Counted from the stretch's first letter, positions 22,622-44,460 are shown. The stretch: DNA of 64,000 nucleotides from Longimicrobiales bacterium (GCA_035513575.1 DATKBW010000049.1:39790-103789); one strand, 5' to 3'. Numbers and translations: made by a program. Notes: a model not told the origin generated them from the sequence alone.

Positions 22622-23371
22622 CTAGTCCGCCGGCGTTGTTCCCGCCGCTCCCGATTCCTCCCCTCCGCGCCGCATGACCAGCGCCGCCCAGCCCACGACG
22701 AAGATCACGGCGAAGGCGAACCACTGGAACGCGTAGGAGAGGTGCGGCCCCTCCCCGAGAGCGGGGGACGGCAGCGGAACGGGCCCTCCCCTGCCGGCCC
22801 GTAAACCGGGGTCCGGTCCCTCCGCCTGGAGGTAGAGCGGTGACACGGGGTAGGGATACTGGGCCCGGATCGGGTCCGCGTCCAGCCGGAACCAGGTCGT
22901 TTGAAAGCTCTCGTCCGGCCGGGCCGTCCCGGTCGCCGGTAGCGGCAGGAGCACGCCCGTGACCGTCACCACGGAGTCCACCGCCACCGCCGACAGGTCC
23001 ACCGTGGCGGCGTCGCGGGACGGCAGCCAGCCGCGATTGACCAGGATCGCGCCCGCGCCGGCGCGGAGCGGGGCCAGGACGTTTACCCCCGGCGCGCCCG
23101 CCATGCTGCGTCCCGCGAGGACCAGGACGCGGGCGTTGTCGTAGCGGCCGCGCGCGATGACACGGCGGTGCGTGAGGCCCACGGTGTCCAGCGGCGGACC
23201 GTCGAGCGAATGCGGCGGCTGCGCCAGCCGCTCCGCGAGGGCGGCGTTCCGCTCGAGGCGCTGCTCGCGGCGGTCGAGCTGCCAGAAGCCCAACCGTACG
23301 CACACCGCCGCGATGACGAACACGCCGATCGTGCCGGCGATGCCGGACCGGGTCAGCTCCAGGGCACGCAT
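22622..23371 (-). CDS. SURF1-family cytochrome oxidase assembly protein
   Basis: 249 aa. N-terminal TM with GFWQLDRR, C-terminal LSYAFQWFAFAV plus TM; classic SURF1/Shy1 pattern. Confidence 0.85.
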   Translation of the reverse strand: MRALELTRSGIAGTIGVFVIAAVCVRLGFWQLDRREQRLERNAALAERLAQPPHSLDGPPLDTVGLTHRRVIARGRYDNARVLVLAGRSMAGAPGVNVLAPLRAGAGAILVNRGWLPSRDAATVDLSAVAVDSVVTVTGVLLPLPATGTARPDESFQTTWFRLDADPIRAQYPYPVSPLYLQAEGPDPGLRAGRGGPVPLPSPALGEGPHLSYAFQWFAFAVIFVVGWAALVMRRGGEESGAAGTTPAD

Positions 23372-23540
23372 CGGCCGTAAGGTGCATCCCGGCGATCACT
23401 TCGGGAACCCCGTCGGTACGCGCGACGGCCGCCGGATCTTCGCAAGGAGCCGGCTGAAACCGCCGCCGCCGGGGACGCGTATGGCCAGCCGGAAGAAGGA
23501 AGGCAATCGCCCCCGTCATCAGGCCCCTGAAAGGCACACG

Positions 23541-25814: not shown

Positions 25815-25880
25815 TCTCCTACACTTCGGTTCGGCCCGCCTCCCCCGCGGAGGCCGGGGCAGAACCGACAGGAGGAGAGC

Positions 25881-27260: not shown

Positions 27261-28571
27261 CTACGCTCCGTCGCCGGCCGCCGCGTCTTCCCGGAGCCGC
27301 ATCAGCACCACCTGCTGGACCTCCATCTCGTCCTTCCGCAGGACGCCCAAACGGTCGGAGCCCACGAACACGTCCGGCATGGGAACACCCCGCAGCTCCC
27401 CGACCAGCGTCCCGTCCCTGTCGTAGATGTCGATCCGGCCAACGGAGTCCGGAACGCTCTCGGCCACCCCAACCCAGATCCGGCCGCGAGGATCCACCCG
27501 CAGCGAGACGACGCGGGGGATCAGCGACGCGAACGTCATCTTCTCCAGCCGCTGCTCCAGCATGCGCCGCCGCGTCTCCTCGTCGGGACCGCTGCCCCCG
27601 ATCCTGACCCTGGTGCCGCCGGCCTCCTCGGCGTCCCGGAGTCGCTGACGCGCGGCCTCTCGGTCCTCTTCCGTGACCGGCCGCGGCGCGGGCGCCCGCT
27701 CGATGGTCCGCCGAACGGCGCCGTCGGGGCCGATCAGCCGGATCAGGTAGGCGGCCGTGTCCGAGACCACGACGCCGCCGTCCGAGAACCCCTGCCACCG
27801 GAACGCCGGTGCGAACTGCCGGGCCATCATCATCACGATCACGCCGCTCCCGATCTCGAGCCGGACCATATCCGTCGGGGGCTCCGGGATCGTCCAGACG
27901 GTATCCAGCACCTCGGCGGTCGGGCCGAGCCGGAGGAGCGGCAGCCGGGAAGACCCGCCCTCGCCGCCGCTGACGGCCGCCCGCCTGCCGCTTCCGGGCG
28001 GGCCGCCGATGTTGAACAGCGGCCGGAAGCTCTGGAGGAAGCCGCCATCCAGCACGGTGAGGGAGGGCGAGGGCACGCCCGAGTTGTCCCCGTAGGGCAC
28101 CGTCCGTGGGTCGCCGCCGGGCTGTGGATAGCCCGTCAGGCGGCTGTTGGAGAAGTCGGTGACCCACAAGGTGTCTCCGGGACCGACCGCCAGCCCCAGG
28201 GGCTGGCTGAGCTCGCCGGGCCCTTCGCCCTTCCGGCCGTACGTGGCCAGGTGGCGGCCGTCCGGTCCGTACTTCAGCACCCGCGACCCCTGGCGATCGA
28301 GGACGAAGAGGTTGCCGTCGGCATCGCCGGCGAGTCGCTCCCAGCTCACCTCCGCGAACTGATACTCGTCGTCCGCGAACGCGTCGCCGAGAACGCCCAC
28401 CGTGTCCACGGACCAGCCAAGCGACGACGCCGCCGTTTCGGGGTAGCTCCACCGTTCGACGCCGCCCACCGTGTCCACCGCCGCGGCCGTCCGGGAGGCC
28501 GAGGCGGAGCCGTCGTCGCACGCCCCCAGGGCGGCAAGGACGAGAACCCCGGTCACCCTGCGCATACGCAT
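27261..28571 (-). CDS. 6-bladed beta-propeller lipoprotein (core-genome paralogue of the island propeller)
   Basis: Internal ATG gives lipoprotein signal MRMRRVTGVLVLAALGAC. Contains the GRKGEGPGELSQP motif (GxGPGE[FL] hallmark of the 6-bladed beta-propeller family, from memory) and repeated beta-strand blades. Confidence 0.65.
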   Translation of the reverse strand: MRMRRVTGVLVLAALGACDDGSASASRTAAAVDTVGGVERWSYPETAASSLGWSVDTVGVLGDAFADDEYQFAEVSWERLAGDADGNLFVLDRQGSRVLKYGPDGRHLATYGRKGEGPGELSQPLGLAVGPGDTLWVTDFSNSRLTGYPQPGGDPRTVPYGDNSGVPSPSLTVLDGGFLQSFRPLFNIGGPPGSGRRAAVSGGEGGSSRLPLLRLGPTAEVLDTVWTIPEPPTDMVRLEIGSGVIVMMMARQFAPAFRWQGFSDGGVVVSDTAAYLIRLIGPDGAVRRTIERAPAPRPVTEEDREAARQRLRDAEEAGGTRVRIGGSGPDEETRRRMLEQRLEKMTFASLIPRVVSLRVDPRGRIWVGVAESVPDSVGRIDIYDRDGTLVGELRGVPMPDVFVGSDRLGVLRKDEMEVQQVVLMRLREDAAAGDGA

Positions 28572-28680
28572 GATCCGTCGCTCCGTGTCCCGTGAGTCCA
28601 CCGACCGCGGGGTGCGATGCGGCGAGGCCGCCGCAGGGTTGCCCCGCGAGCGGCTCTCCCCTTGCGGCTCGGCCAGCGCC

Positions 28681-31293
28681 TCAGTGATGGAGCTCGGGCC
28701 CGCGTCGCTCCGGCGGGAGCAGGGCGCCTTCCGGGAAGGTCAGCGTGCCGTCCTCGAGGCGGGCGCCACGGAGCGCGTGCGCGAGCACCTCGCCGAGGTC
28801 CTCCGCCAGGTGAACCTTCACCTCGTCCCGGATCTCCACGGGCAGGTCTTCCAGGTCGGCCTCGTTGTCCCGGGGCAGCACCACTTCCCGGATCCCGGCG
28901 CGGAAGGCGCCCAGCACCTTCTCCTTCACACCGCCGATGGGCAGGACCCGCCCCGTCAGGGTGATCTCGCCCGTCATGGCGATGTCGTGCCGCACCGCGC
29001 GCCCGGACAGGGCGGAGACCACGGACGTGGCCATGGCCACACCCGCCGACGGGCCATCCTTCGGGACCGCTCCCGCCGGGACGTGGATATGAAGCTCCAG
29101 GTCCTCGAGGCGGTCGGCGGCGACCCCGAGGCGCCCCGCGTGGGTCTTGGTGTACGTCAGCGCCGCCCGCGCCGACTCCTTCATCACGTCGCCCAGCTGC
29201 CCGGTCAGGATCAGGCGGTCCTTCCCTTTCGACGCGCTGGCCTCGACGAACATGATGTCCCCGCCCATGGGCGTGTAGTACATCCCCGTCGCAACGCCAA
29301 CCACATCCTCCTTGGCCTTGACCTCCGGGTGGACCCGCGGCCGACCGAGGAGCGGGTGGACGTCGGACCCGTCGATCCGCAGGTGCTCCGCCGCCCCGCC
29401 CGCGATCCGCCGTGCCGCCTTCCGCGTGAGCTTCCCCAGCTCCCGCTCCAGCTGCCGGACGCCCGATTCCCGGGTGTACTCGCTGATCACCCGCTGGATC
29501 GCCGACTCCGTGACCTCCACGTCACTCTCGCGCAGCCCGCTCTCCTCCCGCTGCCGCGGGATGAGGTACCGGCGCGCGATCTCCAGCTTCTCCTGCTCGG
29601 TGTACCCCGAGAACTCCACCATCTCCATCCGGTCCAGGAGCGGCGCCGGGATGCGGTCGCGGTAGTTGGCCGTGGCGATGAACAGCACCTCCGACAGGTC
29701 GAAAGGCATCCCGAGATAGTGGTCCGTGAACGTGTTGTTCTGCGCCGGGTCCAGCACCTCGAGCAGTGCGGCGGACGGGTCGCCCTGGAGGGACGTGCCC
29801 AGCTTGTCCACCTCGTCCAGCAGGAACACCGGGTTCTTGGTCCCGGCCTGCTTCAACCCCTGGATGATCCGCCCCGGCATTGCGCCGACGTACGTGCGCC
29901 GGTGGCCCCGGATGTCCGCCTCGTCACGCGCGCCGCCCAGGGCAATGCGGACGTACTTCCGGCCCAGCGCCCGGGCGATGCTCTTCGCGATGGATGTCTT
30001 CCCCACGCCGGGGGGACCGACGAACAGCAGGATCGGGCCGCGGCCCACCGCCCGCGCCTTCGCCTTCCGCGCATCGTCCTCCTGATCCGCCACCGGCTCG
30101 GCCGGGCCACCCGCCGTGCCGTCCTCCGCCTCCCCGCCCTCGAGGTCGAAACGGTCCTGCCCCATGCCGAGGATCTCGTCGACGGGCGGCGCCGATGCCG
30201 TACCGCCCGCCTCGTCGGGACCCGGAGTCGACGGCGAAGCCGACTCCGCGTCCTCTTCGGCCCGCTCCATCTGCAGCTTGCGGACGGCCAGGAACTCGAC
30301 CACCCGGTCCTTCACGTCCTCGAGCCCGTAGTGGTCCTCGTCGAGGATCGTGGTCGCGGTGTCCAGGATGATCTTGTCCTCGGTCCGGCTGTTCCACGGC
30401 AGCTCCGTGACCCAGTCGAGATAGGTTCGGATCACCTGGTATTCTGCCGATTGGGGGTGCGTCCGGCGCAGCCGGTTCAGCTCCCGATCCGCTTCCTCCT
30501 GCGCCTCGGGCGGGAGGCCAAGGGCGTCGATCTTCTGGCGCAGCTCCTCCGCCTCGTTCTCTGCGTCCTCGTCCCCCAGCTCCTTCTGGATGGCCTTGAG
30601 CTGCTCGCGCAGCACCATCTCCCGCTGCTTCTCCCCGAGCTCCTCCTGCACCCGCTGCTGGATCTCCTGCTGTGCCTCGATCCTCACCAGGTCCCGCTCC
30701 ACCGACAGCAGCACCTGCCGCATCCGGCTCTCCACCGGCAGCATCTCCAGGAGCTCCTGCTTGTCCGGTGCGCTGAGCTCGAGATAGAAGCCCACCATGT
30801 CGGCAAACTTGCCGGGGTCTTCGATCCCCTCCACCAGTTGCTGGAGCGCCTCGTCCGGGATCCCGCGCCGCCGACCCAGCTCCACCGACCGCTCCCGGAG
30901 CTCGCGGTCCAGCGCCTTGTACGCCGGGTCCTCCGGGTCCGGCACCGGCTCCTCCTCCACCATCCGGACCACCGCCTCGAGACCCCCTTCGGAGCCTCCC
31001 TCGTATTCCAGCGCGCGCGCGCGCTGATCACCCTGGATCAGCAGCTGGAGGCCGCCCCGGACCCGCTGCGCCTGAACCACGCGCACGACCACCCCGAAAT
31101 CGTAGAGGACTTCGGGCGTCGCATCGTCCACGTTCTCCTTCTGGCACGCCGCGAACATCCGGCGGTCTCCGTTGAGCGCCTTCTGGATCGCCGCGACGGT
31201 GCCCGGGCGACCCGCGCTGATCGGCACGGCCACGCCCGGGAAAACGACCGTCTCCCGCAGCGGCAGCACCGGAAGTCTCACTCGATCACCCAT
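28681..31293 (-). CDS. lon: ATP-dependent Lon protease (LonA type) with an acidic insertion before Walker A
   Basis: 870 aa from ATG 31293 (MGDRVRLPVLPLRETVVFPG...). Walker A GPPGVGKTS, Walker B VFLLDEVDK, protease Ser KDGPSAG and the GGVKEK Lys region. The 1510-aa track ORF is a stop-free upstream extension. Confidence 0.95.
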   Translation of the reverse strand: MGDRVRLPVLPLRETVVFPGVAVPISAGRPGTVAAIQKALNGDRRMFAACQKENVDDATPEVLYDFGVVVRVVQAQRVRGGLQLLIQGDQRARALEYEGGSEGGLEAVVRMVEEEPVPDPEDPAYKALDRELRERSVELGRRRGIPDEALQQLVEGIEDPGKFADMVGFYLELSAPDKQELLEMLPVESRMRQVLLSVERDLVRIEAQQEIQQRVQEELGEKQREMVLREQLKAIQKELGDEDAENEAEELRQKIDALGLPPEAQEEADRELNRLRRTHPQSAEYQVIRTYLDWVTELPWNSRTEDKIILDTATTILDEDHYGLEDVKDRVVEFLAVRKLQMERAEEDAESASPSTPGPDEAGGTASAPPVDEILGMGQDRFDLEGGEAEDGTAGGPAEPVADQEDDARKAKARAVGRGPILLFVGPPGVGKTSIAKSIARALGRKYVRIALGGARDEADIRGHRRTYVGAMPGRIIQGLKQAGTKNPVFLLDEVDKLGTSLQGDPSAALLEVLDPAQNNTFTDHYLGMPFDLSEVLFIATANYRDRIPAPLLDRMEMVEFSGYTEQEKLEIARRYLIPRQREESGLRESDVEVTESAIQRVISEYTRESGVRQLERELGKLTRKAARRIAGGAAEHLRIDGSDVHPLLGRPRVHPEVKAKEDVVGVATGMYYTPMGGDIMFVEASASKGKDRLILTGQLGDVMKESARAALTYTKTHAGRLGVAADRLEDLELHIHVPAGAVPKDGPSAGVAMATSVVSALSGRAVRHDIAMTGEITLTGRVLPIGGVKEKVLGAFRAGIREVVLPRDNEADLEDLPVEIRDEVKVHLAEDLGEVLAHALRGARLEDGTLTFPEGALLPPERRGPELHH

Positions 31294-31629
31294 CCGCCAG
31301 CCCTTTCCCCAGCGACCACTCCCCCGGAGCGGTCTCGTCCTCGAACTTCCTCGCCAGCCCGACCCCTGCCGTTTTCGGGGGCGGGCTCGCTCCACCCAGC
31401 CTGAGAGCAGCATGCTGCTTGCCACGCCGTCCACAGACCCGCGATTTCCGCGGCTGGACGCCCCGGACGCACCGTTGATACACCCGACGCCCCCGCCCGC
31501 TCCCGCCGCCGTCCCCCGCCGGAATGGCCGCCCGGGGCGTTTCCCTGCCGTGCTGGCAGAACTCCGGCCCTCGGTTGAGCCGGCGCGTGAGAGGAGGCAT
31601 ATTCCGGGAGCGTTTCCCCCGTGAGAGCG

Positions 31630-33436: not shown

Positions 33437-33571
33437 TTGACTCACCGGTGTCCGCGACCTTCACCGGCGGCACGACCGAGCGGTCGCCCTGCCGGGGGTG
33501 TCCGGCGCGCGATTTCGCGCGCCTTGCGGCACCGCCCTTGATTCGAACGCATACGCGAGAGGAGTGAGCCG

Positions 33572-34765
33572 GTGGCGACCAGAGGGACGATCGGGATCCT
33601 GACGGGCGGTGGCGATGTGCCGGGACTCAACCCGGCGATCCGGGCGATCACGATCCGGGCGCTGAGGGAGGGGTACCGCGTCCTGGGGATCCGGAGGGGG
33701 TGGGCGGGGCTCGTGGACCTGCTCCCGGACAGCGGGGCGGACAACCGCAACAACGTCCAGGAGCTGACCGAGGAGATCGTGAATCGGGCGGGGCGTACCG
33801 GCGGCACGTTCCTGCACACCTCCCGGACGCGTCCGAGCCACCTGCCGCGTGCGGCGGTCCCGGACCACCTGCGCGACCGGTACACGGAAGAGATCAACGA
33901 CGCCACCCCGTCCGTCCTCCAGAACCTGGAGCAGCTCGGCATGGACACGGTGATCGCCATCGGTGGCGATGACACGCTCAGCTATGCGGCCCGGCTGCAC
34001 ACGGAAGGGGTGAAGGTCGTCGCGATCCCGAAGACCATGGACAACGACGTGCCGGGGACGGACTACTGCATCGGCTTCAGCACGTGCGTGACCCGCACCA
34101 TCTCGCTCACGCACGGGCTCCGGACCTCGGCCGGCTCGCACGAGCGCTTCCTGGTCATCGAAGTCTTCGGCCGCTACGCCGGGTTCACCGCGCTGCTCCC
34201 CACCATGGCCGGTGCGGCCGACCGGTGCCTCATCCCGGAGCACCCGGTCGACCTGGACCACCTGACGGAGCTCATGGTCTACGACCGCAACCGGCATCCG
34301 TCCCGCTACTCGGTCGTCCTGGTCTCCGAGGGCGCCACGATCCGGGGCGGCTCCATGAGCTTCGAGGGCGAGGAGGCCGACATGTTCGGACACCGCAAGC
34401 TCGGCGGGATCGGGGACGTGGTGTCCGAGGAGCTGAAGAACCGATCCGCGCAGTTCAACAAGGGCCATCGGGTCAACGTGGTGAACCAGCGCCTCGGATA
34501 CCTGGTACGGAGCGGCGATCCGGACGCCATGGACTCCATCGTTCCCATGGCCTTCGGGAACCTCGCCCTCGACCTGGTCCTGGCGGGGAAGTCGGGCCGT
34601 CTCGTGAGCGTCCGCAACGGGGCCTACGACAACGTCCCCATCGACGTGATCGTGGGGCGGAAGAAGGTGGTGGATGTCCACCGGCACTACAACACGGAGC
34701 GGCTCCGCCCGATCTACCATACGTTCAATCGGCAGCCGGTGTTCATCATGACGAGTGACGTGTAA
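33572..34765 (+). CDS. pfk: 6-phosphofructokinase, sequence signatures of the PPi-dependent type
   Basis: GILTGGGDVPGLN, IGGDDT (Asp at the E. coli Gly104 position) and PKTMDND (Lys at the Gly124 position). GTG start preceded by GAGAGGAG. Confidence 0.88.
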   Translation: MATRGTIGILTGGGDVPGLNPAIRAITIRALREGYRVLGIRRGWAGLVDLLPDSGADNRNNVQELTEEIVNRAGRTGGTFLHTSRTRPSHLPRAAVPDHLRDRYTEEINDATPSVLQNLEQLGMDTVIAIGGDDTLSYAARLHTEGVKVVAIPKTMDNDVPGTDYCIGFSTCVTRTISLTHGLRTSAGSHERFLVIEVFGRYAGFTALLPTMAGAADRCLIPEHPVDLDHLTELMVYDRNRHPSRYSVVLVSEGATIRGGSMSFEGEEADMFGHRKLGGIGDVVSEELKNRSAQFNKGHRVNVVNQRLGYLVRSGDPDAMDSIVPMAFGNLALDLVLAGKSGRLVSVRNGAYDNVPIDVIVGRKKVVDVHRHYNTERLRPIYHTFNRQPVFIMTSDV

Positions 34766-34774
34766 GCGACGACC

Positions 34775-36439
34775 ATGGCGACCGATCTCTTCCGCAGCAT
34801 CCGCGCTCCGCGGGGCACCGGGATCTCCTGCAAGGGGTGGCAGCAGGAGGCGGCGCTGCGGATGCTGATGAACAACCTCGATCCGGAGGTGGCCGAGCGG
34901 CCGGAGGACCTCGTCGTCTATGGCGGTACGGGGCGCGCGGCGCGGAGCTGGGAAGCGTTCGATGCGATCGTCCGTACGCTGCGGGACCTGGAGAACGACG
35001 AGACGCTCCTGGTGCAGTCGGGGAAGCCGGTGGGGGTGTTCCGGACGCACGCGTACGCTCCCCGTGTGCTGATCGCGAACAGCAACCTGGTGGGGCGCTG
35101 GGCGACCTGGGAGCATTTCCGTGAGCTCGAGCGCCAGGGGCTCATGATGTACGGCCAGATGACGGCCGGCTCCTGGATCTACATCGGGACCCAGGGGATC
35201 CTCCAGGGGACCTACGAGACGTTCGGAGCGGTCGCCCGCCAGGAGTTCGGCGGATCGCTGAAGGGCCGCTGGGTCCTCACCGGCGGCATGGGCGGGATGG
35301 GCGGCGCGCAGCCCCTCGCCGCCACCATGAACGACGGGGCGATCCTGTGCGTGGAGGTCGACCCCGATCGGATCGAGCGGCGGCTCCGCACCGGGTACTG
35401 TGACCGCATGACCCGTGACCTGGACGAGGCGCTGCGCTGGGTGACCGGGGCCTCCCGCGCGGGAGAGGCGCTGAGCGTCGGGCTGGCGGGGAACTGCGCC
35501 GAAGTGCTCCCGGAGATCGTGCGTCGCGGCCTGGTCCCCGACGTGCTGACGGACCAGACGTCCGCCCACGACGCGCTCCATGGCTACGTCCCGGCGGGGC
35601 TGTCCCTCGAGGAGGCCGACGCGCTGCGGCAGCGCGACCCGGCGGAGTACCAGCGGCGATCGATGGAGAGCATGGCCACGCACTGCCGCGCCATGGTCGA
35701 GCTGATGCGCCGCGGCGCCGTGACGTTCGATTACGGAAACAATCTCCGCGGCCAGGCGCTCGATGCCGGCTATGACGAGGCGTTTGCTTTCCCCGGCTTC
35801 GTCCCGGCCTATGTCCGGCCGCTCTTCTGCGAAGGGAAGGGGCCCTTCCGCTGGGCCGCGCTGTCCGGTGACCCGGCGGACATCCACCGCACGGACGACC
35901 TGGTCCTGGAGCTGTTCCCCGAGGACGACCACCTGCGCCGGTGGATCACCCGGGCCCGGGACAGGGTGCGGTTCCAGGGGCTCCCCAGTCGCATCTGCTG
36001 GCTCGGCCTCGGCGCCCGCGCCCGGTTCGGGATCGCCCTCAACGACCTGGTGGCGAGCGGCGAGATCAGGGCCCCCATCGTGATCGGCCGCGATCACCTG
36101 GACACGGGGTCCGTCGCGTCGCCCTTCCGCGAAACCGAGGCGATGAAGGACGGGAGCGACGCCGTCGCCGACTGGCCCATCCTGAACGCCCTCCTGAATA
36201 CGGCCAGCGGGGCCAGCTGGGTGAGCTTCCATCACGGGGGGGGCGTCGGGATCGGCAACTCCCTGCACGCCGGCCAGGTCATCGTCGCCGACGGGACGCC
36301 CGAGATGCGTGAGCGGCTCGAGCGCGTGCTGACCAACGATCCGGGGATCGGCGTCGCCCGGCACGCCGACGCGGGCTACGACGCCGCGCTGGAGACCGCG
36401 CGGCGCGAGGGCGTGCGCCTGCCCATGCGGGAGCACTGA
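34775..36439 (+). CDS. hutU: Urocanate hydratase
   Basis: 554 aa. [34 protein letters not shown]; near full-length match to the HutU pattern. Confidence 0.95.
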
Positions 36440-36583
36440 CCGGCGTGGCCGGACCCGCGCCGCGGAGCCCGCCCCGTCCCGTTCCGGTTGACGCCGCCCG
36501 ACATCCCGGGCGACGTTGTCGCCGGTACCCTGCACGGACGCCGGCCCCCGCGCAGACCTGTGAAACGCCGACCAGGAACCGGA

Positions 36584-37240
36584 ATGACGACCGACGGATA
36601 CGAATACGACGCGCCCGAGTCCCACCCCTTCCCGACGGACCCGGACATCGAGCCGGCGGAAGAAGAAGAGAGCCCGCGGCCGACGGCGAGCCGATGGACG
36701 GACAGCATTCGCAACCGCCTGTTCCGCGCCCGGACCCTGATCATCAGCGGCGAGGTGAACCAGAAGCTGGCTTCGGAGGTGATGGGGCAGGTGCTGGCGA
36801 TGTCGGCGGAGTCGGACGAGCCCATCACGATCTTCATCAACTCCCAGGGCGGGCACGTCGAATCCGGAGACACCATCCACGACATCATCCGCTTCATCCG
36901 CTCGCCCGTGCACATGGTGGGCACGGGCTGGGTCGCCAGCGCGGGGGCGCTGATCTACGTGGCCGTCCCGCGGGAGCGGCGTTTTTCGCTGCCCAACACG
37001 CGATTCCTCCTCCACCAGCCGGCCGGCGGGACCCGCGGTACCGCATCGGACGTGGAGATCGAAGCGCGCGAGATCCTGAAGATGAGGGAGCGGTTGAACC
37101 GCGTGTTCTCCGAGCAGACGGGGCAGCCGCTGGAGCGGATCGTGGAGGACACCCACCGCAACTTCTGGCTGGGCGCGAACGAGGCGGTGGAGTACGGTCT
37201 GGTCGGCAAGATCATCCAGCATGCCGACGAGGTGAAGTAG
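36584..37240 (+). CDS. clpP: ClpP-family ATP-dependent protease proteolytic subunit with an acidic N-terminal extension
   Basis: INSQGGHVESG, catalytic Ser in GWVASAGA, His in FLLHQP. C-terminus AVEYGLVGKIIQHADEVK. Start uncertain (36488 or 36584). Confidence 0.85.
   Translation: MTTDGYEYDAPESHPFPTDPDIEPAEEEESPRPTASRWTDSIRNRLFRARTLIISGEVNQKLASEVMGQVLAMSAESDEPITIFINSQGGHVESGDTIHDIIRFIRSPVHMVGTGWVASAGALIYVAVPRERRFSLPNTRFLLHQPAGGTRGTASDVEIEAREILKMRERLNRVFSEQTGQPLERIVEDTHRNFWLGANEAVEYGLVGKIIQHADEVK
37186..37240 (+). repeat. Left copy of the 55-nt imperfect direct repeat (functional clpP 3' end)
   Basis: GGTGGAGTACGGTCTGGTCGGCAAGATCATCCAGCATGCCGACGAGGTGAAGTAG. 48/55 identical to 41196-41250 by hand alignment. 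Confidence 0.85.
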
Positions 37241-37250
37241 GGCGCCAGAG

Positions 37251-38020
37251 CTATAGGATCCCGGACCGGCGTAATGCATCGGCCAACATCCATTGCCAGC
37301 CGAGTCGGGAGCGGATGTAGCTGGGCCGTGCTCCGATGATCTCATTCAGGCGATCGCTCATGGAGGGAAGGCCGGAGAACCCGAGGGTAAAGGCGAGCTC
37401 AGCGAGCGGGCTTTTGGGATGCCGCTGGATTTCAAGTGCCACTCCGACCACGCGCAGCGCCTGGTACCACGTTTTTGGGGCCCGAGCCCGGCGCCAATGA
37501 ATGCCCGTTGCCAACGCGCGAAGGAAATTCGTCGGGCTCGGGCTAGCGCTGCCATGCTCCGGAACACGGCAGCATTTCGGGCGAAACATTTGAGCGCCGC
37601 AGCAGCATCGGGCGTCACATCGAACCCACGCCGGTGCGCCCACAGCACCGCGGCTTCTGGCCAGTCGCTGGCGTCAGTGAGCTGTCGCCTCAGCACTTCC
37701 GCGCCTGGTTCGCAAGCCCAGACGACGGTTCGCACCCCCAGTGGACGGGCGGCCGAGGCTAGAAGGGTGCCGGCCCTCCGGCCCACACAATCCACCCAGA
37801 GCGCGACGGGCGCGTTCACCACGCGTCGAGCCACTTGATCGACAACTTCCGCGACCTCCGCCGCAGAACAACCACGAGGAGGGCGGAGCGCGACGACGTT
37901 GCCTCGCGTCAGGTAGGGGGGCAGGCCACCAAGATCCACCGGACCGGTGAACCGCCCGTATGCGTCCGGATCGGCGTCCTTCACGTCGAGATCGAGCGTG
38001 TAAATCGGCAACTGGCGCAT
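37251..38020 (-). pseudogene. AraC/XylS-family HTH regulator with an unknown N-terminal domain, interrupted by a frameshift at a C4A5 run
   Basis: ORF 37358..38020 carries the N-domain and first HTH (MAALARARRISFARWQRAFIGAGLGP). ORF 37251..37643, in another frame, carries the rest (KTWYQALRVVGVALEIQ...LAELAFTLGFSGLPSMSDRLNEIIGARPSYIR). The frames meet at CCCCAAAAA (37472-37480); one extra base would fuse them. Confidence 0.6.
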
Positions 38021-38311: not shown

Positions 38312-39403
38312 ATGATCGCACATTACCAGCAGAGCAAGCGCAATCAGGTTTTAGCGGCGTTAGGACGGTATCCCGTGCTCTCCTCCTCCAGATCGAACGG
38401 GTTCAGGCAATTGCTTGCCGTGACACTCGTCACGGCAAATTGTGGAACGTCTCCGGGTTCAGCTTCGGAACGGGGGGGCGGAAGCGCCACGTTCCCGGAT
38501 CACCTTCATGTCGTGGGCGAGGTCATCCTGGAAGAACGCCCGAACGTCATTAACGTGCAGCCTTCGGTGCGGGCCGATCCGCACGGAGGGTTCCTCGTGG
38601 CCGATAAGCGCGAAAGCCAGGTCAGACGCTACCACCTCGATGGGAGCCTCGACTTCGCTTTTGGTAGTCCCGGCCAAGGACCTGAAGAGTTCGTCGGCGC
38701 TGTCGTCAGCGTACGCCTACCCGATCAGTCCATCCTAGTAGTCGATCGCACCAGCAAGATTGTAACCCTCGATCCCTCTGGTAATCGGGTAACGCGTCAG
38801 TGGCAGCTCCCGCTCACGAATATCGTGGACGCTGACGTGATCGATGATTCTCGGATCCTTTTTTCAGTCCGCGCATCCGCATCGCGCCCGCTGCTGCACA
38901 TCTGGAATATCAACAAGGGGGAATTAGAGCGACATTTCTTCATTCCTCCGCAGAATTCTCAAATCCGGGCGGCGTCGATTATCGGCGGATGGGCGTTCGC
39001 GAGCATTCAGAACGATACGATCTGGAGTTTCTTTTCGGCCGTGGACTCCGTTTACGCGTTTTCTACCGAGGGTGTTCGCCTCATGGCCGTCCGGATCCCA
39101 TTCGAGCGCTTTGACATCGCGCGTCCACCACGTCGTGTTTTCGGGATCCGCTTCGGATCGTTCGACGAATGGATCGGATCATTCCACCTGATTTCCTCCA
39201 TTGCTGCATTGGAGGACCTCCTGCTCATCCAGTATGGTCGCTACGGCAGGAATCCCCAAGTTTCGCTGTTGGGGATGACCACCGCTGGCGCGCGCGTGTT
39301 CGAACATTTGCTTGTCGTCACGCCTTACCCCCCCATAACGGCCTACTTCCAAGCACGTGAGACCTCGGAGCCGAATCGATGGATCGCCGCCTCCATCCGG
39401 TAG
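38312..39403 (+). CDS. 6-bladed beta-propeller protein (probable lipoprotein), island copy
   Basis: 363 aa. GSPGQGPEEF motif (GxGPGEF-type hallmark) and repeated blade-like beta segments. Hydrophobic LLAVTLVTANC near the N-terminus. An alternative GTG start at 38375 would give a standard-length lipoprotein signal. Confidence 0.6.
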   Translation: MIAHYQQSKRNQVLAALGRYPVLSSSRSNGFRQLLAVTLVTANCGTSPGSASERGGGSATFPDHLHVVGEVILEERPNVINVQPSVRADPHGGFLVADKRESQVRRYHLDGSLDFAFGSPGQGPEEFVGAVVSVRLPDQSILVVDRTSKIVTLDPSGNRVTRQWQLPLTNIVDADVIDDSRILFSVRASASRPLLHIWNINKGELERHFFIPPQNSQIRAASIIGGWAFASIQNDTIWSFFSAVDSVYAFSTEGVRLMAVRIPFERFDIARPPRRVFGIRFGSFDEWIGSFHLISSIAALEDLLLIQYGRYGRNPQVSLLGMTTAGARVFEHLLVVTPYPPITAYFQARETSEPNRWIAASIR

Positions 39404-39864
39404 GAGTGCTAGTCGTCGCTGTAGTCGCAGGGATTTCCGGTGGCGCCTTTGGTCGTATGGTCTCCGATCAGCCGGGTACTCCGATTGAGGAATACATGTC
39501 GATCGATTCGAGCAGGGGAAGCAGTGAACGCCTGCTCCGGCTCGTTTGGACCGTCGGAAGCACCAGCGCGCTCGGGTGCCAGAACTGGCAGCCCCTGATG
39601 AGGAGATTGCTTTGGCATCATGGGGATGAGCTGGAGATCGTCGCGGTTGTGGGCGAAAGAGATTCTGCCGCAGTCCGCGCGTTCCTCCGCACAGAGCGGT
39701 TGGGAAACGTGCGCATTGCTGGACAGCCCGCCCGATACCGCGACAGGTCTTCCCGCTTCCACCTGCTCTACCGTGACTCAGTGGTGGTGTCCGCAGGCGC
39801 CTCCCGGCGCGGTATGGCGGCGCTCGAGCACGTCGCCAAGGTGGTAATGAACGAGGATTACTGA
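39379..39864 (+). CDS. Membrane-anchored thioredoxin-fold-like protein lacking a CxxC motif (single Cys, A-L-G-C)
   Basis: 161 aa. TM helix VGVLVVAVVAGISGGAF. LLRLVWTVGSTSALGCQNWQPLMRRLL...ELEIVAVVGERDSAAVRAFL resembles the TlpA/redoxin beta-alpha-beta core, but only the second Cys position is kept. GGAG SD upstream; 25-nt overlap with the propeller gene. Fold assignment is tentative. Confidence 0.4.
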   Translation: MDRRLHPVGVLVVAVVAGISGGAFGRMVSDQPGTPIEEYMSIDSSRGSSERLLRLVWTVGSTSALGCQNWQPLMRRLLWHHGDELEIVAVVGERDSAAVRAFLRTERLGNVRIAGQPARYRDRSSRFHLLYRDSVVVSAGASRRGMAALEHVAKVVMNEDY

Positions 39865-39894
39865 GCGAGGTCACCAAGACGCATGTTTCACTTC

Positions 39895-39904
39895 AAGGAG
39901 GAGG
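39895..39904 (+). promoter_or_regulatory. Strong Shine-Dalgarno (AAGGAGGAGG) for the Cys-rich peptide gene
   Basis: 8-nt AT-rich spacer (TTATTAAA) to the ATG at 39913. Lies inside the longer 39883 ORF, which argues for the 39913 start. Confidence 0.75.
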
Positions 39905-39912
39905 TTATTAAA

Positions 39913-40125
39913 ATGTCTCGACTGCGCAAGTTGCTCATTGGCGTGCTGGCTCTCGCGGGACTTGGCTTCGCCGGAGCAGTCGTCACCCCTGGGGCCTTGT
40001 TCGGGGATATGGACCCGGCTGATTGGTGCCAGCAGGTCCTGGATCCCAATTGTACCGAGCACTGCTACTATGAATGTGACATTACAAAGGAGTGTCAGTT
40101 CGAAAACTGCTGCGGGTGCGGTTGA
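39913..40125 (+). CDS. 70-aa signal/leader-bearing cysteine-rich peptide (8 Cys in the last 32 residues)
   Basis: MSRLRKLLIGVLALAGLGFAGAVVTPGALFGDMDPADWCQQVLDPNCTEHCYYECDITKECQFENCCGCG. Basic n-region plus hydrophobic h-region, then an acidic Cys-rich tail. Excellent SD. The next gene starts 5 nt after the stop. Confidence 0.65.
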   Translation: MSRLRKLLIGVLALAGLGFAGAVVTPGALFGDMDPADWCQQVLDPNCTEHCYYECDITKECQFENCCGCG

Positions 40126-40129
40126 ACCA

Positions 40130-40948
40130 ATGCGAAGGAGCGGGAGGTCTGGGATTCTGAAGACGCTTCCAGCGCTCCCGCTCCGTCACAGGCGCCCTGC
40201 GCTCTCCGTCCTTCTCGGACTGCAGGTGATCTACGCACCAGTCGCCGCGCAGTCGATCCGGGGTGCGGTCGTGGACGACGAGTCATCGCGGCCCATCACT
40301 GGATCGCTGGTGCAGGTGTTCGACCAGGCGGGTGCCCGCGTTTCCGCAAGCCAAACGGGATCCGACGGGCGATTTCATGTTCGGCTGCCGAATGCGGGAT
40401 CGTATGCGTTGTCCGCGGAACGGCTCGGGTACGGGTGGGCGGTGGCGCGCTCGCTCCACGTGCGAGTTGGCGAAGTACTAGAGCTGGAGCTGCGGCTGCC
40501 CCGGCTCCCCATTCCACTCGAACCGCTCACCGTTCGTGTGGAGCGCCGGCTCGCACACCTGGAGCGCGTGGGCTTCTACCAGCGGGAGCGGATGGGCATC
40601 GGTCGGTTCATTACCGCAGAGGACATTGAGGCGCGCCGCCCGCTCATCCTTACGGACGTCCTTCGCGGCGAGCCATCCGTCCGGGTCCTGAATACTCCCG
40701 ACGGTGCGGGTCACGTCATTGCGTTTCGCGGCGCACACACGATGTACCTGGCCATGGGCCATGACGCCTGCCTCCCAGTCGTGGTGCTTGACGGCACCCG
40801 ACTCGCCACGGCCGGGGACGTCAACCTTGTCCACCCGGAAAATGTCGCTGCCATCGAGCTCTACCCAAGCGGGAATGGCGCTCCTCCGCAGTTTGGCGGT
40901 CTGGGGGCGCCCTGCGGGGTCATCATGATCTGGACAAAGCGAGGCTGA
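40130..40948 (+). CDS. Carboxypeptidase-regulatory-like domain + TonB-receptor plug-like domain protein (no barrel)
   Basis: 272 aa from the internal ATG. Signal-like LSVLLGLQVIYAPVAAQS, then SIRGAVVDDESSRPITGSLVQVFD...SDGRFHVRLPNAGSYALSAERLGY (CarbopepD_reg pattern). C-terminal ITAEDIEARRPLILTDVLRGEPSVRV...VVLDG...ENVAAIELYP (plug-like). Confidence 0.7.
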   Translation: MRRSGRSGILKTLPALPLRHRRPALSVLLGLQVIYAPVAAQSIRGAVVDDESSRPITGSLVQVFDQAGARVSASQTGSDGRFHVRLPNAGSYALSAERLGYGWAVARSLHVRVGEVLELELRLPRLPIPLEPLTVRVERRLAHLERVGFYQRERMGIGRFITAEDIEARRPLILTDVLRGEPSVRVLNTPDGAGHVIAFRGAHTMYLAMGHDACLPVVVLDGTRLATAGDVNLVHPENVAAIELYPSGNGAPPQFGGLGAPCGVIMIWTKRG

Positions 40949-41195: not shown

Positions 41196-41250
41196 GGTGG
41201 AGGACGGCCTCGTCGGCAAGATCATCCAACACGTCCACGAGGTGAAGTAG
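41196..41250 (+). repeat. Right copy of the direct repeat: displaced clpP 3'-end remnant
   Basis: GGTGGAGGACGGCCTCGTCGGCAAGATCATCCAACACGTCCACGAGGTGAAGTAG encodes ...VEDGLVGKIIQHVHEVK*. There is no ClpP body upstream of it. Confidence 0.8.
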
Positions 41251-41498
41251 CGCGGGACCCTTGCCAACCGGCCAGCGGGATTGCTAGCGTTCCCATACCA
41301 GCGGTGACGCGGGCCGCGAGAAAGCCCACGCCCACCCGGCCCACCGGCGAGCGCCGGGGGTCCCGCCCTCTCTCAGAGGGCACGCGAGGTCGGAACGGCG
41401 CGTCACAGGCGGTCGACGCGGGCCCCCGGACCGGGAGCCGCGCCGAAACGACGACAGCGTCGAAGGAGGCGACGAATGCCACCGGGCAGTCGAGGAAG

Positions 41499-41577: not shown

Positions 41578-43245
41578 CTAGACGTCCCCGGTCCGATCCG
41601 CGACCTGGCGCTGCACCTCCTCCAGCATTCGCCGACCCCTCTCCATCAGTGTGGTCGCCCGTTCCTCGACCTCGGCACGGAAGGCATGGTCCTCGATGTC
41701 GGCCAGGTTGATCAGGACGTTGCGGTGTGCGCCGTAGAGGCACGCCTCGAGCGCTTTCGCCCCCACGTCCAGGTCTGAGCGAGAGGAGTACTGGCCCACG
41801 CGCGCGAGCTCGAGCATGGGGTCCCAGGCGCGGTCAGCCGTCTCCATGGCCCGGAGCGGGACCAGCGTCGCCTTCTTGAGGCCCTCCTCCATCGCCGTCC
41901 GCCGGGCGACCTTCTGCTCCTCCGTCTCCCGCGGCATCCGGATGGCCTTCACGTAATCCGCGAAGGCGTCGGTGTCGGCGTCGACCGCGCGCAGCAGCGC
42001 CTCCTGGACCTCCACCAGCGCCGGGAGGTTCGCCCGCACGGTGGCGTCGAGGTGATCGTACTTCCGGCGGCCGTAAGTGAGCCATCCCACCATGGCCCCG
42101 AGGCCGGCGCCCAGGGCGCCCACGAGCGCGGCGACCGAGCCGCCCCCCGGCGTCGAGGTCCGTGCGCCGACCGCCTCCACGAAGTCGCGGACGGACTTCC
42201 GGATGAGCGGCCCGTCGGCGTCCTGGTCGATCATGTACTCGATGATCTTCTCCTCCGGGCGGAAGGCGTGGACGGAGGAGAGCCCCAGCCGATCGATGAC
42301 GAGCCGGACCTTCTGCCGCTCGTCGAGGATGAACAGCCCCTCCCGCTCGATGTAGAAATCGGCCGCCTGGAGGACCGCCTCCAGGGGGATCAGCCCCACG
42401 ACCTCGCTGCCCGCGACGCCGACGCCCAGCTCGGCCGCGTCCTTCCGGATCGCCTCGTAGACGGCGTGGAGGGGCGTGACGCGGTAGTTGTCCAGGTTCA
42501 TGGAGACCTGGGCGAGGCCGAACTCCTCGAGCTCCCAGCCGATCCCCTTCACCGCGTCGAAATACCCGGGCTCCCGGATGGTCTCGCCCCCGGGGCCCTT
42601 CACGGTCCGGCCCTGCTCCCGGATGTTCAGCGCCAGGCGGTGCGCCTGGTTACGGGTGCCCAGGATGTTGACGTTGTAGGCGATCAGGAAGAAGCGGACG
42701 CCGGTCACGGTCGCGCCGGACCGGGCGACGAAGGTCGCCGGGCCGAAGTCGGGCGCCCACTCGGGCTGGCCGATCCGGTCCGCGAGGCCCTCGTACTCGC
42801 CCTGCCGGATCTGCCGGAGCGCCTTCCGATGCTCCAGCGCCTGGGCCTCCTCGTACAGGTAGATCGGGACCCCGAGCTCCTCGCCGACGCGTGCGCCGAA
42901 CCGCCGGGCGCAGTCGATGCACTCCTCCATGCTCACGCCGGAAACGGGGATGAAGGGCACCACGTCCACCGCTCCGAGCCGCGGGTGCTCGCCGCTGTGC
43001 CGGGTCATGTCGATCAGCCGGTACGCCGTTGCCGCCGCCCTGAAGGCCGCTTCCACGACATCGGCGGGCGCGCCCACGAAGGTCATCACCGTCCGGTTCG
43101 TGGATTTCCCCGGGTCCACGTCCAGGAGCTTGACTCCGGGTGCGCCGCGGATGCTCTCGGCGATCGCGTCCAGCAGCGCCGGGTCCCGGCCTTCGGAGAA
43201 GTTTGGAACACACTCGACCAGCCGCATCGACCGCCGTCCGTTCAT
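41578..43245 (-). CDS. ftcD: Bifunctional glutamate formiminotransferase-cyclodeaminase
   Basis: N-terminal LVECVPNFSEGRD formiminotransferase domain. C-terminal cyclodeaminase domain (TSTPGGGSVAALVGALGAGLGAMV). Start is either 43245 or 43227. Confidence 0.88.
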   Translation of the reverse strand: MNGRRSMRLVECVPNFSEGRDPALLDAIAESIRGAPGVKLLDVDPGKSTNRTVMTFVGAPADVVEAAFRAAATAYRLIDMTRHSGEHPRLGAVDVVPFIPVSGVSMEECIDCARRFGARVGEELGVPIYLYEEAQALEHRKALRQIRQGEYEGLADRIGQPEWAPDFGPATFVARSGATVTGVRFFLIAYNVNILGTRNQAHRLALNIREQGRTVKGPGGETIREPGYFDAVKGIGWELEEFGLAQVSMNLDNYRVTPLHAVYEAIRKDAAELGVGVAGSEVVGLIPLEAVLQAADFYIEREGLFILDERQKVRLVIDRLGLSSVHAFRPEEKIIEYMIDQDADGPLIRKSVRDFVEAVGARTSTPGGGSVAALVGALGAGLGAMVGWLTYGRRKYDHLDATVRANLPALVEVQEALLRAVDADTDAFADYVKAIRMPRETEEQKVARRTAMEEGLKKATLVPLRAMETADRAWDPMLELARVGQYSSRSDLDVGAKALEACLYGAHRNVLINLADIEDHAFRAEVEERATTLMERGRRMLEEVQRQVADRTGDV

Positions 43246-43404
43246 GATGGATGGGGGAACCCGTGTCCCCGACTCTGCCCGGCACGCCCCCATCCGTCAA
43301 GGCCGTGGGAATCCGGGCCGCCGTCCAACCATACGCCCCCGGCCTCCGTCCAACGCAGGGGAGACTCATTCGAACAATCGAACGCATCCACAGGAAGGAG
43401 ACCC

Positions 43405-44460
43405 ATGGGGAAGCCGATGCGGCTGATGGTGGGGGCGGCAGCGCTGTCCGCGCTCGCGCTCTCGCCGGCCAGCGCGCAGGAGCGGTACGACGTCGGAGGC
43501 GATCGCGTCGCCATCTACAACCTGGCGGGCGCCATCTCCGTCACGCCCGCGTCCGGTCGCGCGGTCACCGTCGACGTCCGGCGCGGCGGCGGGGACGCCA
43601 GCGGGCTCAGGGTGGAGGTAGGGGAAGTCGGCGGCGTGCAGGCGCTGCGCGTGATCTACCCATCCGACCGCGTCGTTTACGACCCCGGCAGCTGGCGCGG
43701 CAACACCGAGCTGCGGGTGCGTCCGGATGGTACCTGGGACAACCGCGAGGTCTGGCGCAGCCGCGGGGATCGGGTACGCGTGTCGAGCCGGGGCTCAGGG
43801 ATGGAGGCGCACGCGGACCTCACCATCGGCGTGCCGCGCGGGCAGCGCATCGAGGTCTACCTGGCCGTCGGCCGGATCACGGCGGAGAACGTCGACGGCC
43901 ACGTCCTCCTCGACACCCATTCCGGGGGGGTCAGCGCCCGCGCCATGAGCGGGTTCCTGCGGGTGGACACCGGCTCCGGGAGTGTCGAGGTCCTCGGCAT
44001 GCAGGGCGATCTCGAAGTGGACACCGGCTCGGGCAGCGTGCGCGTGCGGGACGTGCGGGGCCAGGAGATCGCCCTGGACACCGGGTCCGGAAGCGTGGAG
44101 GCCGACGGCCTCTTCGCCTCCCGGATCGAGATCGACACGGGTTCCGGGCGGATCGACCTGCTGCGCTCTTCCGCCCGCGAGGTCCGCCTGGACACGGGCA
44201 GCGGATCGGTGGAGGCGGAGCTCTCCGGAGAGATCGCCGACCTCGAGGTGGACACCGGCTCGGGAAGCGTATCGCTGCGCCTCCCCGAGAACCTGAGCGC
44301 CACGCTGGCCATCGAGACGGGCAGCGGCGGCATCGAAGTGGATTTCCCCGTCTCCATCACCCGCCGCGCCCGGGACGAGCTCCGGGGGCAGATCGGTGAC
44401 GGCCGGGGTCGGATCGTCGTGGACACCGGCTCCGGGAGCATCCGGCTCCGACGCATGTAG
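43405..44460 (+). CDS. DUF4097-type beta-strand repeat protein (putative adhesin fold), secreted
   Basis: Signal peptide MGKPMRLMVGAAALSALALSPASA, then eight or more DTGSGS(V/I) repeats. GGAAGGAG SD upstream. Confidence 0.8.
   Translation: MGKPMRLMVGAAALSALALSPASAQERYDVGGDRVAIYNLAGAISVTPASGRAVTVDVRRGGGDASGLRVEVGEVGGVQALRVIYPSDRVVYDPGSWRGNTELRVRPDGTWDNREVWRSRGDRVRVSSRGSGMEAHADLTIGVPRGQRIEVYLAVGRITAENVDGHVLLDTHSGGVSARAMSGFLRVDTGSGSVEVLGMQGDLEVDTGSGSVRVRDVRGQEIALDTGSGSVEADGLFASRIEIDTGSGRIDLLRSSAREVRLDTGSGSVEAELSGEIADLEVDTGSGSVSLRLPENLSATLAIETGSGGIEVDFPVSITRRARDELRGQIGDGRGRIVVDTGSGSIRLRRM

Follow-up and report, generated by a model that had tools for sequence, protein, structure and literature searches.

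Which genes make up the small cassette at 38312-40948 of a Longimicrobiales contig, and what would its cysteine-rich secreted peptide be for? The stretch analysed here, called the window (64,000 nt, one strand; GCA_035513575.1 DATKBW010000049.1:39790-103789), comes from a metagenome-assembled genome (MAG) of the Longimicrobiales (Gemmatimonadota). An initial annotation, made from its sequence, described a cassette of four plus-strand open reading frames (ORFs) at 38312-39403, 39379-39864, 39913-40125 and 40130-40948, with spacings of -25, +48 and +4 nt, and these coordinates and the strand were all reproduced. In the NCBI annotation, two of the four proteins are listed as hypothetical proteins (VMM12_04610 and VMM12_04615). 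The module proper is one of three genes rather than four, encoding an NHL-type beta-propeller, a thioredoxin (Trx)-like protein and a cysteine-rich peptide; it recurs in Longimicrobiales and Rhodothermus, and we regard its existence as very likely. All three products are predicted to face the periplasm. With a probability of roughly 0.5, and by analogy with known systems, the Trx-like protein and the propeller would jointly handle the disulfides of the peptide, which would be an exported effector. The cassette contains the following features.

38312-39403, plus strand: NHL-type six-bladed beta-propeller, probable lipoprotein (LLAVTLVTANC), assigned by HMMER, AlphaFold2 (AF2), Foldseek and the family hidden Markov model (HMM; E 8e-110)
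39379-39864, plus strand: putative membrane-anchored TlpA/ResA-like thioredoxin-fold protein, a single-Cys variant, overlapping the propeller gene by 25 nt
39895-39904, plus strand: strong Shine-Dalgarno sequence AAGGAGGAGG, 8 nt before the start codon (ATG) of the peptide, read from the sequence
39913-40125, plus strand: 70-aa precursor with a Sec-type signal (MSRLRK and a hydrophobic segment) and an anionic 8-Cys core, from ORF and translation
40130-40948, plus strand: secreted protein with a CarboxypepD_reg domain (PF13620, E 2.7e-13) and a TonB-receptor Plug domain (PF07715, E 7.1e-8)

Related loci were collected by pattern scans with a 14-sequence propeller alignment, which gave seven genome loci (from Longimicrobium species, a Longimicrobiaceae bacterium, a Gemmatimonadota bacterium and Rhodothermus) and 24 metagenome loci. 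A Trx-like homologue directly follows the propeller gene in 17 of the 23 non-redundant loci with at least 500 nt downstream; such homologues were found by tblastn and by jackhmmer (E 1e-9 to 1e-57, 18 other loci). The gaps between the two genes range from -25 to +65 nt, and the -25 overlap of the window is identical in L003, L005, L013 and L018. Peptides of the same position and architecture as that of the window are present in 21 other loci, and a same-strand Cys-rich ORF with a signal peptide is adjacent in 18 of the 21 loci with at least 900 nt downstream. The neighbourhood check advised in the initial annotation, which asked for a conserved small Cys-rich ORF beside the propeller and Trx-like homologues, therefore gave a positive answer (18/21 and 17/23 loci). 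To qualify in the peptide scan, an ORF had to encode 35-130 aa, have a K/R start, contain a hydrophobic segment and carry four or more Cys among its last 40 residues. Qualifying ORFs numbered 23 in 97 kb near propellers and 5 in 461 kb elsewhere, corresponding to 0.236 versus 0.011 per kb, a 22-fold enrichment (about 1 expected, Poisson P 5e-23), and a chance small ORF was rejected on this ground.

In a neighbour-joining tree of the propellers, the clades coincide with the peptide class (A, B/C, D) and with the Trx motif (CxxC versus xxxC), and the three genes therefore diversify together. The flanking genes vary by locus (hemN, hrcA, dnaJ and uvrA among them), which indicates that the triad is a self-contained unit travelling on its own. 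The arrangement is not uniform. The peptide gene lies upstream of the propeller in Rhodothermus-type loci, and duplicated peptide genes accompany a single propeller in L003 and L016. L009, L030 and L031 lack a Trx-like gene; their peptide gene comes before the propeller, which is followed by a second propeller-like gene. L013 carries two tandem cassettes, one at 1-630 (propeller tail and Trx-like gene) and one at 711-2577 (propeller, Trx-like gene, peptide and a 159-aa protein). A decayed copy is found at 8010-9357 of L008, in which parts of the propeller lie in different frames, the Trx-like gene is truncated but retains CLEC, and the peptide is missing.

The fourth gene of the window does not follow this pattern. 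Its product was correctly described at first as a CarboxypepD_reg and Plug protein without a barrel (E 2.7e-13 and 7.1e-8): it ends at residue 272, directly past a ..GVIMIWTKRG motif, with no barrel-like frame beyond, and hence it is not a TonB-dependent receptor. No homologue was detected in the other loci (31 of 31 without one), and because of this absence we take the Plug protein to be a local passenger rather than a module component. A Plug or TonB-type uptake step was likewise rejected as a part of the system, since it is absent elsewhere. The idea of a four-gene cassette was thus upheld by synteny for the propeller, the Trx-like protein and the peptide, and abandoned for the Plug protein, which is missing from the 31 other loci.

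Literature searches returned nothing on the module, nor on NVEALA, DUF5128 or NHL repeats in combination with ribosomally synthesised and post-translationally modified peptides (RiPPs), and queries on Longimicrobium cysteine-rich peptides or on beta-propeller, thioredoxin and cysteine-rich peptide together gave unrelated titles. The module is undescribed, and it combines two known kinds of system, namely a dedicated oxidoreductase with an exported Cys peptide, and the pairing of Trx with NHL.

The peptide of the window agrees with its first description as a 70-aa protein with a Sec-like N-terminus and eight Cys in its last 32 residues. These Cys are located at positions 39, 47, 51, 55, 61, 66, 67 and 69, giving the pattern C-x7-C-x3-C-x3-C-x5-C-x4-CC-x-C-G, and the last 40 residues have a net charge of -8. 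Every peptide of the collection shows a K/R-rich n-region followed by a hydrophobic segment of 12-20 residues, according to a sequence rule and not a signal-peptide predictor. The precursors are 55-80 aa long and end in a core of about 30 aa with 4-8 Cys, so that the mature forms would measure about 35-45 aa. At least four Cys frameworks were distinguished, with a vicinal CC in every class.

Type A peptides, nine examples: ..QFYIxS..C-x2-CC-x4-CC-x5-7-C
Types B and C peptides, nine examples: C-x3-C-x4-10-CC
Types D and E peptides: C-x12-14-C-x4-5-C-x4-9-CC-x2-3-C
Window 8-Cys form: C-terminal C-x4-CC-x-C, resembling types D and E

What places the window peptide in this class is its position and architecture; its sequence does not. 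When ten peptides were scanned with Pfam and NCBIfam, no peptide family emerged, the only matches being weak, below threshold and due to chance, and the peptides match neither the NVEALA model nor any other Pfam model. Public annotations do call the peptide ORFs as genes, always under the name 'hypothetical protein'. A type-D peptide is also possessed by cultured Rhodothermus profundi (SHK63071.1, SHK83790.1 and SHL09297.1) and R. marinus (WP_397546771.1); the three R. profundi accessions share an identical 74-aa sequence, which suggests multiple copies. Comparable precursors are known from the STa-type heat-stable enterotoxins: about 70 aa in length, they combine a Sec signal with a short six-Cys core at the C-terminus, which includes CC pairs and is oxidised in the periplasm. 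The module precursors are similar in size, in the Sec-type signal and in the CC-bearing C-terminal core, but their frameworks differ (C-x2-CC-x4-CC-x5-7-C and others, versus CC-x2-CC-x3-C-x2-C in STa), they have no Pfam match, and STa is not known to have a propeller or Trx partner of its own.

Inside each peptide class the loops diverge around unchanging Cys columns, with pairwise ratios of nonsynonymous to synonymous substitution rates (dN/dS) of 0.3-1.07. In the closest orthologous pair, L007 versus L023, dN/dS amounts to 0.83 for the peptide, 0.32 for the propeller, 0.27 for the Trx-like protein and 0.26 for the regulator, and the peptide evolves 2-3 times faster than its partner proteins. 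Taken together, the fast evolution that preserves the scaffold, the duplications in L003 and L016 and the mobility of the module suggest an effector that acts outside the cell.

An alternative is a toxin with its immunity protein, where the peptide is a Sec-exported, disulfide-stabilised toxin, the propeller lipoprotein provides periplasmic immunity and the Trx-like protein only folds the toxin. Loops that change fast on a fixed Cys scaffold (dN/dS 0.8-1.07 among recent paralogues and orthologues), the repeated peptide genes per single propeller in L003 and L016, propeller clades co-diversifying with peptide classes, a mobile and context-independent module whose window copy lies on an acquired islet, and the fairly high dN/dS of the partner proteins themselves (0.25-0.48) are all consistent with this proposal. 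Against it stand the anionic-to-neutral charge of the peptides, the place of the propeller gene ahead of the peptide gene in the operon, and the NHL blade of the propeller, which is strongly conserved instead of hypervariable. Propellers without peptides also exist in L027 and L028, although orphan immunity genes are common, and PADLOC returned no relevant match. On balance we consider a toxin with its immunity protein an unlikely account of the module.

The product of 38312-39403, first described as a 6-bladed propeller, is an NHL-repeat six-bladed beta-propeller as judged from its structural model and sequence. The AF2 model, based on a 50-sequence alignment, is all-beta with about 24 strands (mean predicted local distance difference test score (pLDDT) 85; predicted template modelling score (pTM) 0.79), and Foldseek matched it best to the NHL domains of Thin, Brat and TRIM2 (E 2.5e-11). 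In the PDB, phmmer matched residues 81-158 to NHL repeats (E 6e-9) and a profile search reached E 4e-35, and a clear NHL motif is retained in the first one or two blades only. The N-terminus (..LLAVTLVTANC) resembles a lipoprotein signal, and the NCBI gene call of 296 aa omits that part.

The kinship to a Bacteroidota propeller family, suggested in the initial annotation, proved real and distant. That annotation likened the cassette to Bacteroidota loci in which such propellers and TlpA-like thioredoxins would occur beside NVEALA peptides. The Foldseek matches include the Bacteroides structural-genomics proteins 3s9j (DUF4221, BVU_1028) and 4raa (BF0058) at E 1e-9 to 4e-10, and these DUF5128/DUF4221 propeller lipoproteins have the same fold and roughly the same size. 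In contrast, the window propeller scores 13.5 bits (E 0.041) against Pfam DUF5128 (PF17170), below the gathering threshold of 22.9, while 17 of 50 propeller-family members match that model at E<0.01 (best E 3.9e-6). By sequence, then, the family appears as a distant relative of DUF5128 and not a member of it. An exhaustive HMMER scan with the propeller recovered 1148 representatives (50%-identity clusters) at E<=1e-3, among them 97 at <=1e-30. The relatives measure about 350 aa, align over their full length with 30-40% identity and share the motif DPxGGFLVADxREAQVRRY..FGRxGxGPGEF. When each of these three proteins of the module was used in a word-indexed search, self matches and one weak NHL match were all that came back. 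The Logan contigs encoding cassette proteins are only 1.3-1.5 kb long and all derive from the same sample, and no plasmid in PLSDB encodes a propeller relative.

Most of the conserved propeller positions in the 50-sequence alignment fall in the NHL-repeat blade; there is a single conserved His, and no metal- or cofactor-binding motif was recognised among these positions. A PAL-like amidating-lyase role, prompted by the C-terminal Gly of the window peptide, was rejected, because the other peptides lack a terminal Gly; the one conserved His and the top 50 Foldseek matches, none of which is described as an amidating lyase, also speak against it.

The order of the three genes also recalls the mau cluster, in which MauB is a seven-bladed propeller, MauD is Trx-like and MauA is a Cys-rich light chain of about 130 aa with a conserved Trp pair for the tryptophan tryptophylquinone (TTQ) cofactor. 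Both systems run from a propeller to a Trx-like helper and a small signal-bearing Cys-rich protein. By this comparison the peptide would be a disulfide-rich subunit or ligand that stays bound to the propeller, as MauA does to MauB, and the complex would be an enzyme or a receptor; the gene order, propeller, Trx-like, small Cys-rich secreted protein as in mauB-(E)-D-A, the tight translational coupling and the co-diversification of the three genes fit such a complex. Unlike MauA, however, the module peptides are hypervariable and about 35-45 aa when mature, far too variable in sequence for a catalytic subunit, and no Trp or Tyr pair is conserved across the peptide classes. The propeller is a six-bladed NHL type and not seven-bladed, its conserved positions lie largely in the NHL blade without a recognised metal or cofactor motif, and several loci have two different peptides per propeller. 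A permanent complex of this kind therefore seems quite improbable.

The initial annotation also reported a second propeller of the same family at 27261-28571 on the plus strand, and this claim has to be withdrawn. That ORF is an antisense shadow (GC1, the guanine-plus-cytosine (GC) content at first codon positions, 0.91), and the real gene lies on the opposite strand.

27261-28601, minus strand: 446-aa NHL lipoprotein (LAALGAC, GEGPGEL)

This protein matches the propeller-family HMM in one NHL blade only (E 1e-9), and because the match is limited to one blade it belongs to a different NHL family. The gene is situated between an aldehyde dehydrogenase and a Lon protease, and has neither a Trx-like nor a peptide neighbour.

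For the product of 39379-39864, the single Cys in an ALGC motif was seen as first described, and the Trx-fold likeness was supported in part. The window protein alone has no Pfam, NCBIfam or PDB sequence match. With hhalign, the family profile aligned to Bacillus subtilis ResA, whose sequence was entered by hand, at 76% probability (E 2.3e-5, 118 columns), in a register that places DCLxC on the CEPC of this ResA sequence and LPA on its cis-Pro loop LPTT. Pfam and PDB matches of the family to the Trx clan were otherwise sub-threshold (Thioredoxin_2, Redoxin, StoA, YkuV and thioredoxin, E 0.01-2), including a PDB profile search with E 0.1-2 only. The AF2 single-sequence model is poor (pLDDT 42); its secondary-structure order, b-a-b-a-b-b-a, is compatible with a Trx fold, and Foldseek with this model gave nothing significant, with ResA, StoA and DsbE among the top matches.

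In the family alignment, an N-terminal hydrophobic segment usually ends in a Cys, as in lipoproteins, and is followed in order by the motifs ..LVWVFRTxDCL(S/T)CQ.., ..VAVHVG.. and ..LPAxxLV... Nine of 15 aligned sequences carry DCLxC, whereas the window protein and five others keep the second Cys only; this residue, C67, is invariant in 15/15. The CxxC form is found in nine loci, all with type-A or type-E peptides, and the xxxC form in the window, L004, L011, L017, L022 and L007/L023. The window protein thus has ALGC in place of CxxC and RFH in the cis-Pro loop where most homologues have LPA, so that it lacks the cis-proline as well; the cis-Pro is also absent in L007/L023. Between L007 and L023 the xxxC variants are under purifying selection (dN/dS 0.27).

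Pairing of a Trx fold with an NHL propeller is known from NHLRC2 and SOQ1, where the top face of the propeller carries the Trx domain, with a CxxC-type motif at the interface, and the cleft between the domains is the proposed client-binding site (PMC6107167; 10.1101/2021.03.16.435614). The module would also pair a putative Trx-fold protein with an NHL propeller in an extracytoplasmic-type compartment, but as separate overlapping genes, usually for lipoproteins, and not as a single polypeptide. The motif is CC(I/V)NC in NHLRC2 and SOQ1 (PMC6107167) versus DCL(S/T)CQ or xxxC in the module. For NHLRC2 no conserved operon was found (PMC6107167), whereas the module has a candidate client peptide encoded next door. 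No entry described as NHLRC2 or SOQ1 appeared in the propeller-profile PDB search (E<=0.01) or in the top 50 Foldseek matches.

Based on this analogy, the three products might work as follows. The precursor would be exported by Sec and its signal peptide removed. The Trx-fold protein would dock on the propeller, in the manner of the two fused domains of NHLRC2 and SOQ1, and the pair would bind the peptide and set, edit or hold its disulfides. In the CxxC clades the Trx-fold protein may act catalytically on the peptide disulfides, while in the xxxC clades, the window included, a mixed-disulfide mode with a single thiol, or a chaperone mode, can be envisaged. The product would be a compact, anionic, disulfide-locked peptide with fast-evolving loops, and would most likely serve as an antagonistic or signalling effector beyond the producing cell. 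The genes, their synteny, their joint diversification and the rapid change of the peptide on a constant Cys scaffold are observed; the physical interaction of the three products, the redox direction and their biological role are what we infer here. A bolder proposal is that the propeller and the Trx-fold protein form a two-component periplasmic peptide-maturation machine of a categorically new type, from which precursors exported by Sec would receive a defined disulfide topology, or else a further modification of the cysteines in the invariant vicinal CC; we hold this tentatively and find it rather unlikely.

Several observations weigh against joint disulfide handling by the Trx-fold protein and the propeller. 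The window peptide has its self match alone among 5.8 billion proteins. The Trx-like gene is missing in 6 of the 23 informative loci (the whole Rhodothermus clade, L016, L027 and L028), from which it follows that the Trx partner is dispensable or replaced by housekeeping Dsb proteins, and the propeller occurs without a peptide in three loci (L008, L027 and L028). The likeness to a Trx fold rests on the 76% hhalign match to a hand-entered ResA sequence and on sub-threshold matches, and catalysis by the window protein is doubtful because its first Cys and the cis-Pro are missing. No immunity or export function was identified. Net charges of -8 to 0 in all peptides but one (+2) would moreover be atypical for cationic, membrane-active bacteriocins.

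The latter point also separates the module from bacteriocin loci with their own thiol-disulfide oxidoreductase, such as PedC, BdbA/BdbB (sublancin) and BlpG (PMC4919988, PMC8270828). These loci, which the module with its Trx-like protein resembles, set a small exported Cys peptide beside its own Trx-superfamily CxxC protein, which ensures the disulfides, and a small peptide with a Sec signal, predicted here by the sequence rule, is found in Sec-dependent class II bacteriocins too. However, the oxidoreductase-bearing loci belong to Firmicutes and have double-glycine leaders, C39/ABC exporters, identified immunity genes and cationic peptides, while the module has a Sec signal, no ABC exporter, anionic-to-neutral peptides, a propeller as constant partner, and a Trx-like family of which part lacks the first Cys.

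A different use of the cysteines would be metal handling, in which the vicinal Cys of the peptides hold a thiophilic metal, for example Cu(I), the TlpA-like protein is a reductase that keeps the peptides reduced and the Plug protein links the system to outer-membrane uptake. The CC pair in every peptide class and the anionic cores are compatible with this, TlpA/ResA-type proteins are typically reductants, the Plug-domain gene of the window begins 4 nt after the peptide, and HlyD/RND/TolC-type genes lie near three loci. Yet the window locus alone has the Plug protein, which lacks a barrel, no His or Met ligands are conserved, the neighbouring ORFs listed or scanned include no metal-responsive regulator, metallochaperone or P-type ATPase, and even Cys counts (4, 6 and 8) fit full disulfide pairing. 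Metal handling is accordingly highly improbable in our view.

In agreement with the initial annotation, the window copy lies on what looks, from its sequence, like acquired DNA. It takes the form of an islet of about 4 kb and low GC, apparently inserted into the 3' end of clpP. Regional GC is 0.59-0.64 at 38-41 kb versus about 0.71 for the surroundings, and the islet is bracketed by a direct repeat of the clpP 3' end.

37186-37244, plus strand: left repeat copy, functional clpP 3' end with the last 17 codons and stop; left islet boundary
41196-41254, plus strand: right repeat copy, displaced clpP 3'-end remnant reading ..VEDGLVGKIIQHVHEVK*; right islet boundary

The two copies, found by repeat search, translation and alignment, are 58-59 nt long and 86% identical, and such a bracketing duplication of the clpP 3' end would be the signature of an element of about 4 kb inserted there. 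Neither an integrase nor a recombinase domain came up in Pfam and NCBIfam scans of the islet ORFs. The window is free of tRNA and Rfam features, and thus the islet is not tRNA-targeted. All four cassette frames show GC1>GC2<GC3 with GC2 lowest, and their GC3 is 0.66-0.74 versus about 0.9 in core genes (PFK, hutU, clpP and FTCD); this pattern together with the lower GC3 argues that they are genuinely coding and of foreign composition. At 33461-37345 (minus), 22347-27203 (minus), 28471-31404 (plus) and 42052-44460 (plus), real genes are accompanied by very long ORFs (800-1600 aa) on the opposite strand or in another frame. Such shadow ORFs are usual in a genome of 71% GC, and ORF length alone is therefore no evidence of a gene. 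At about 43400-44460 (plus) a signal-bearing protein with many tandem 'DTGSGS(V/I)' repeats was noticed, which looks like a beta-helix or adhesin-type protein.

Upstream of the propeller, the islet also carries a regulator gene.

37251-38020, minus strand: AraC-type helix-turn-helix (HTH) regulator, apparently frameshifted near 37500, with the N-terminal frame at 38020-37358 and the HTH frame at 37643-37251

Pfam HTH_18 matched the 130-aa ORF at 37251-37643 (E 1.8e-5), and a 220-aa ORF overlaps it in another frame. An intact homologous regulator frame spanning both parts is present in L024, immediately upstream of the propeller, and the frameshift in the window is either a pseudogene mutation or a MAG assembly error. 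AraC-type HTH regulators near the cassette are recurrent (window, L007, L023 and L024) and not universal, an extracytoplasmic function (ECF) sigma factor is found near it in L020, and the adjacent AraC-type regulator may control the module.

The damaged regulator raises the question of whether the window copy is a decaying remnant, no longer working while the family is functional elsewhere. The islet has no integrase, its Trx-like protein lacks the first Cys and the cis-Pro, its peptide is a sequence orphan and its propeller sits on a long branch of the neighbour-joining tree, all of which would fit decay. Nevertheless, the four ORFs are intact with coherent GC at the codon positions, a strong Shine-Dalgarno sequence stands before the peptide, purifying selection acts on the Trx variants of L007 and L023, which are just as degenerate, and the frameshift could be an assembly error. 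A remnant is thus very improbable.

Known maturation machinery was looked for on the islet and in related loci. The initial annotation had seen no known RiPP or bacteriocin machinery, and the scans of five islet ORFs with Pfam, NCBIfam and PADLOC were clean in this respect, with propeller, Plug, CarboxypepD_reg and HTH_18 matches only and nothing meaningful from PADLOC. They contained no radical SAM, YcaO, LanM, C39/ABC exporter or protease, and no known RiPP-class maturase (radical SAM/SPASM, YcaO, LanB/C/M, MNIO, P450 or graspetide ligases); nine neighbouring proteins scanned in related loci included no maturase.

Other neighbouring genes differ between loci. HlyD-family membrane-fusion genes are located near the propeller in L020 (5374-9072), L024 (1-1757) and L027 (8179-10731), together with TolC-like and RND-pump-like genes assigned by eye from the sequence, not by HMM; these neighbours might help to export the peptide through the outer membrane, or might lie there by coincidence. 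A signal-bearing protein of about 140-160 aa with no Pfam match follows the type-A peptides in L005 (7516-7935) and L006 (9843-10277), and the same conserved protein is seen in L013 (2736-3215) and L021 (4026-4592); it is a possible fourth component specific to the type-A clade. Directly downstream of the cassette in L017 (2334-4337), there is a gene for a 667-aa CHAT and SIR2_2 protein with a defence-like architecture.

The three core genes look like orphans in word-indexed searches, and it was the exhaustive HMM scan together with synteny that placed the cassette in a family of more than 1,100 clusters. If the module is as we read it, a large unannotated reservoir of disulfide-locked secreted peptides would exist in soil Gemmatimonadota and in cultivable Rhodothermus, where peptides with at least four CC-bearing Cys frameworks would move together with dedicated handling proteins; scaffolds of this kind are in demand as stable bioactive peptides. 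It would also supply a genetically linked client for a Trx-fold and NHL-propeller pair, and a tractable split bacterial model. The clients and mechanism of NHLRC2 (FINCA disease) and SOQ1 (photoprotection) are still debated. Should the propeller and the Trx-fold protein indeed form a maturation machine, the result would be a new class of bacterial peptide natural products rich in disulfides, one that is widespread among the Gemmatimonadota and Rhodothermota and has a mechanistic link to the unexplained Trx-NHL pairing of NHLRC2 and SOQ1.

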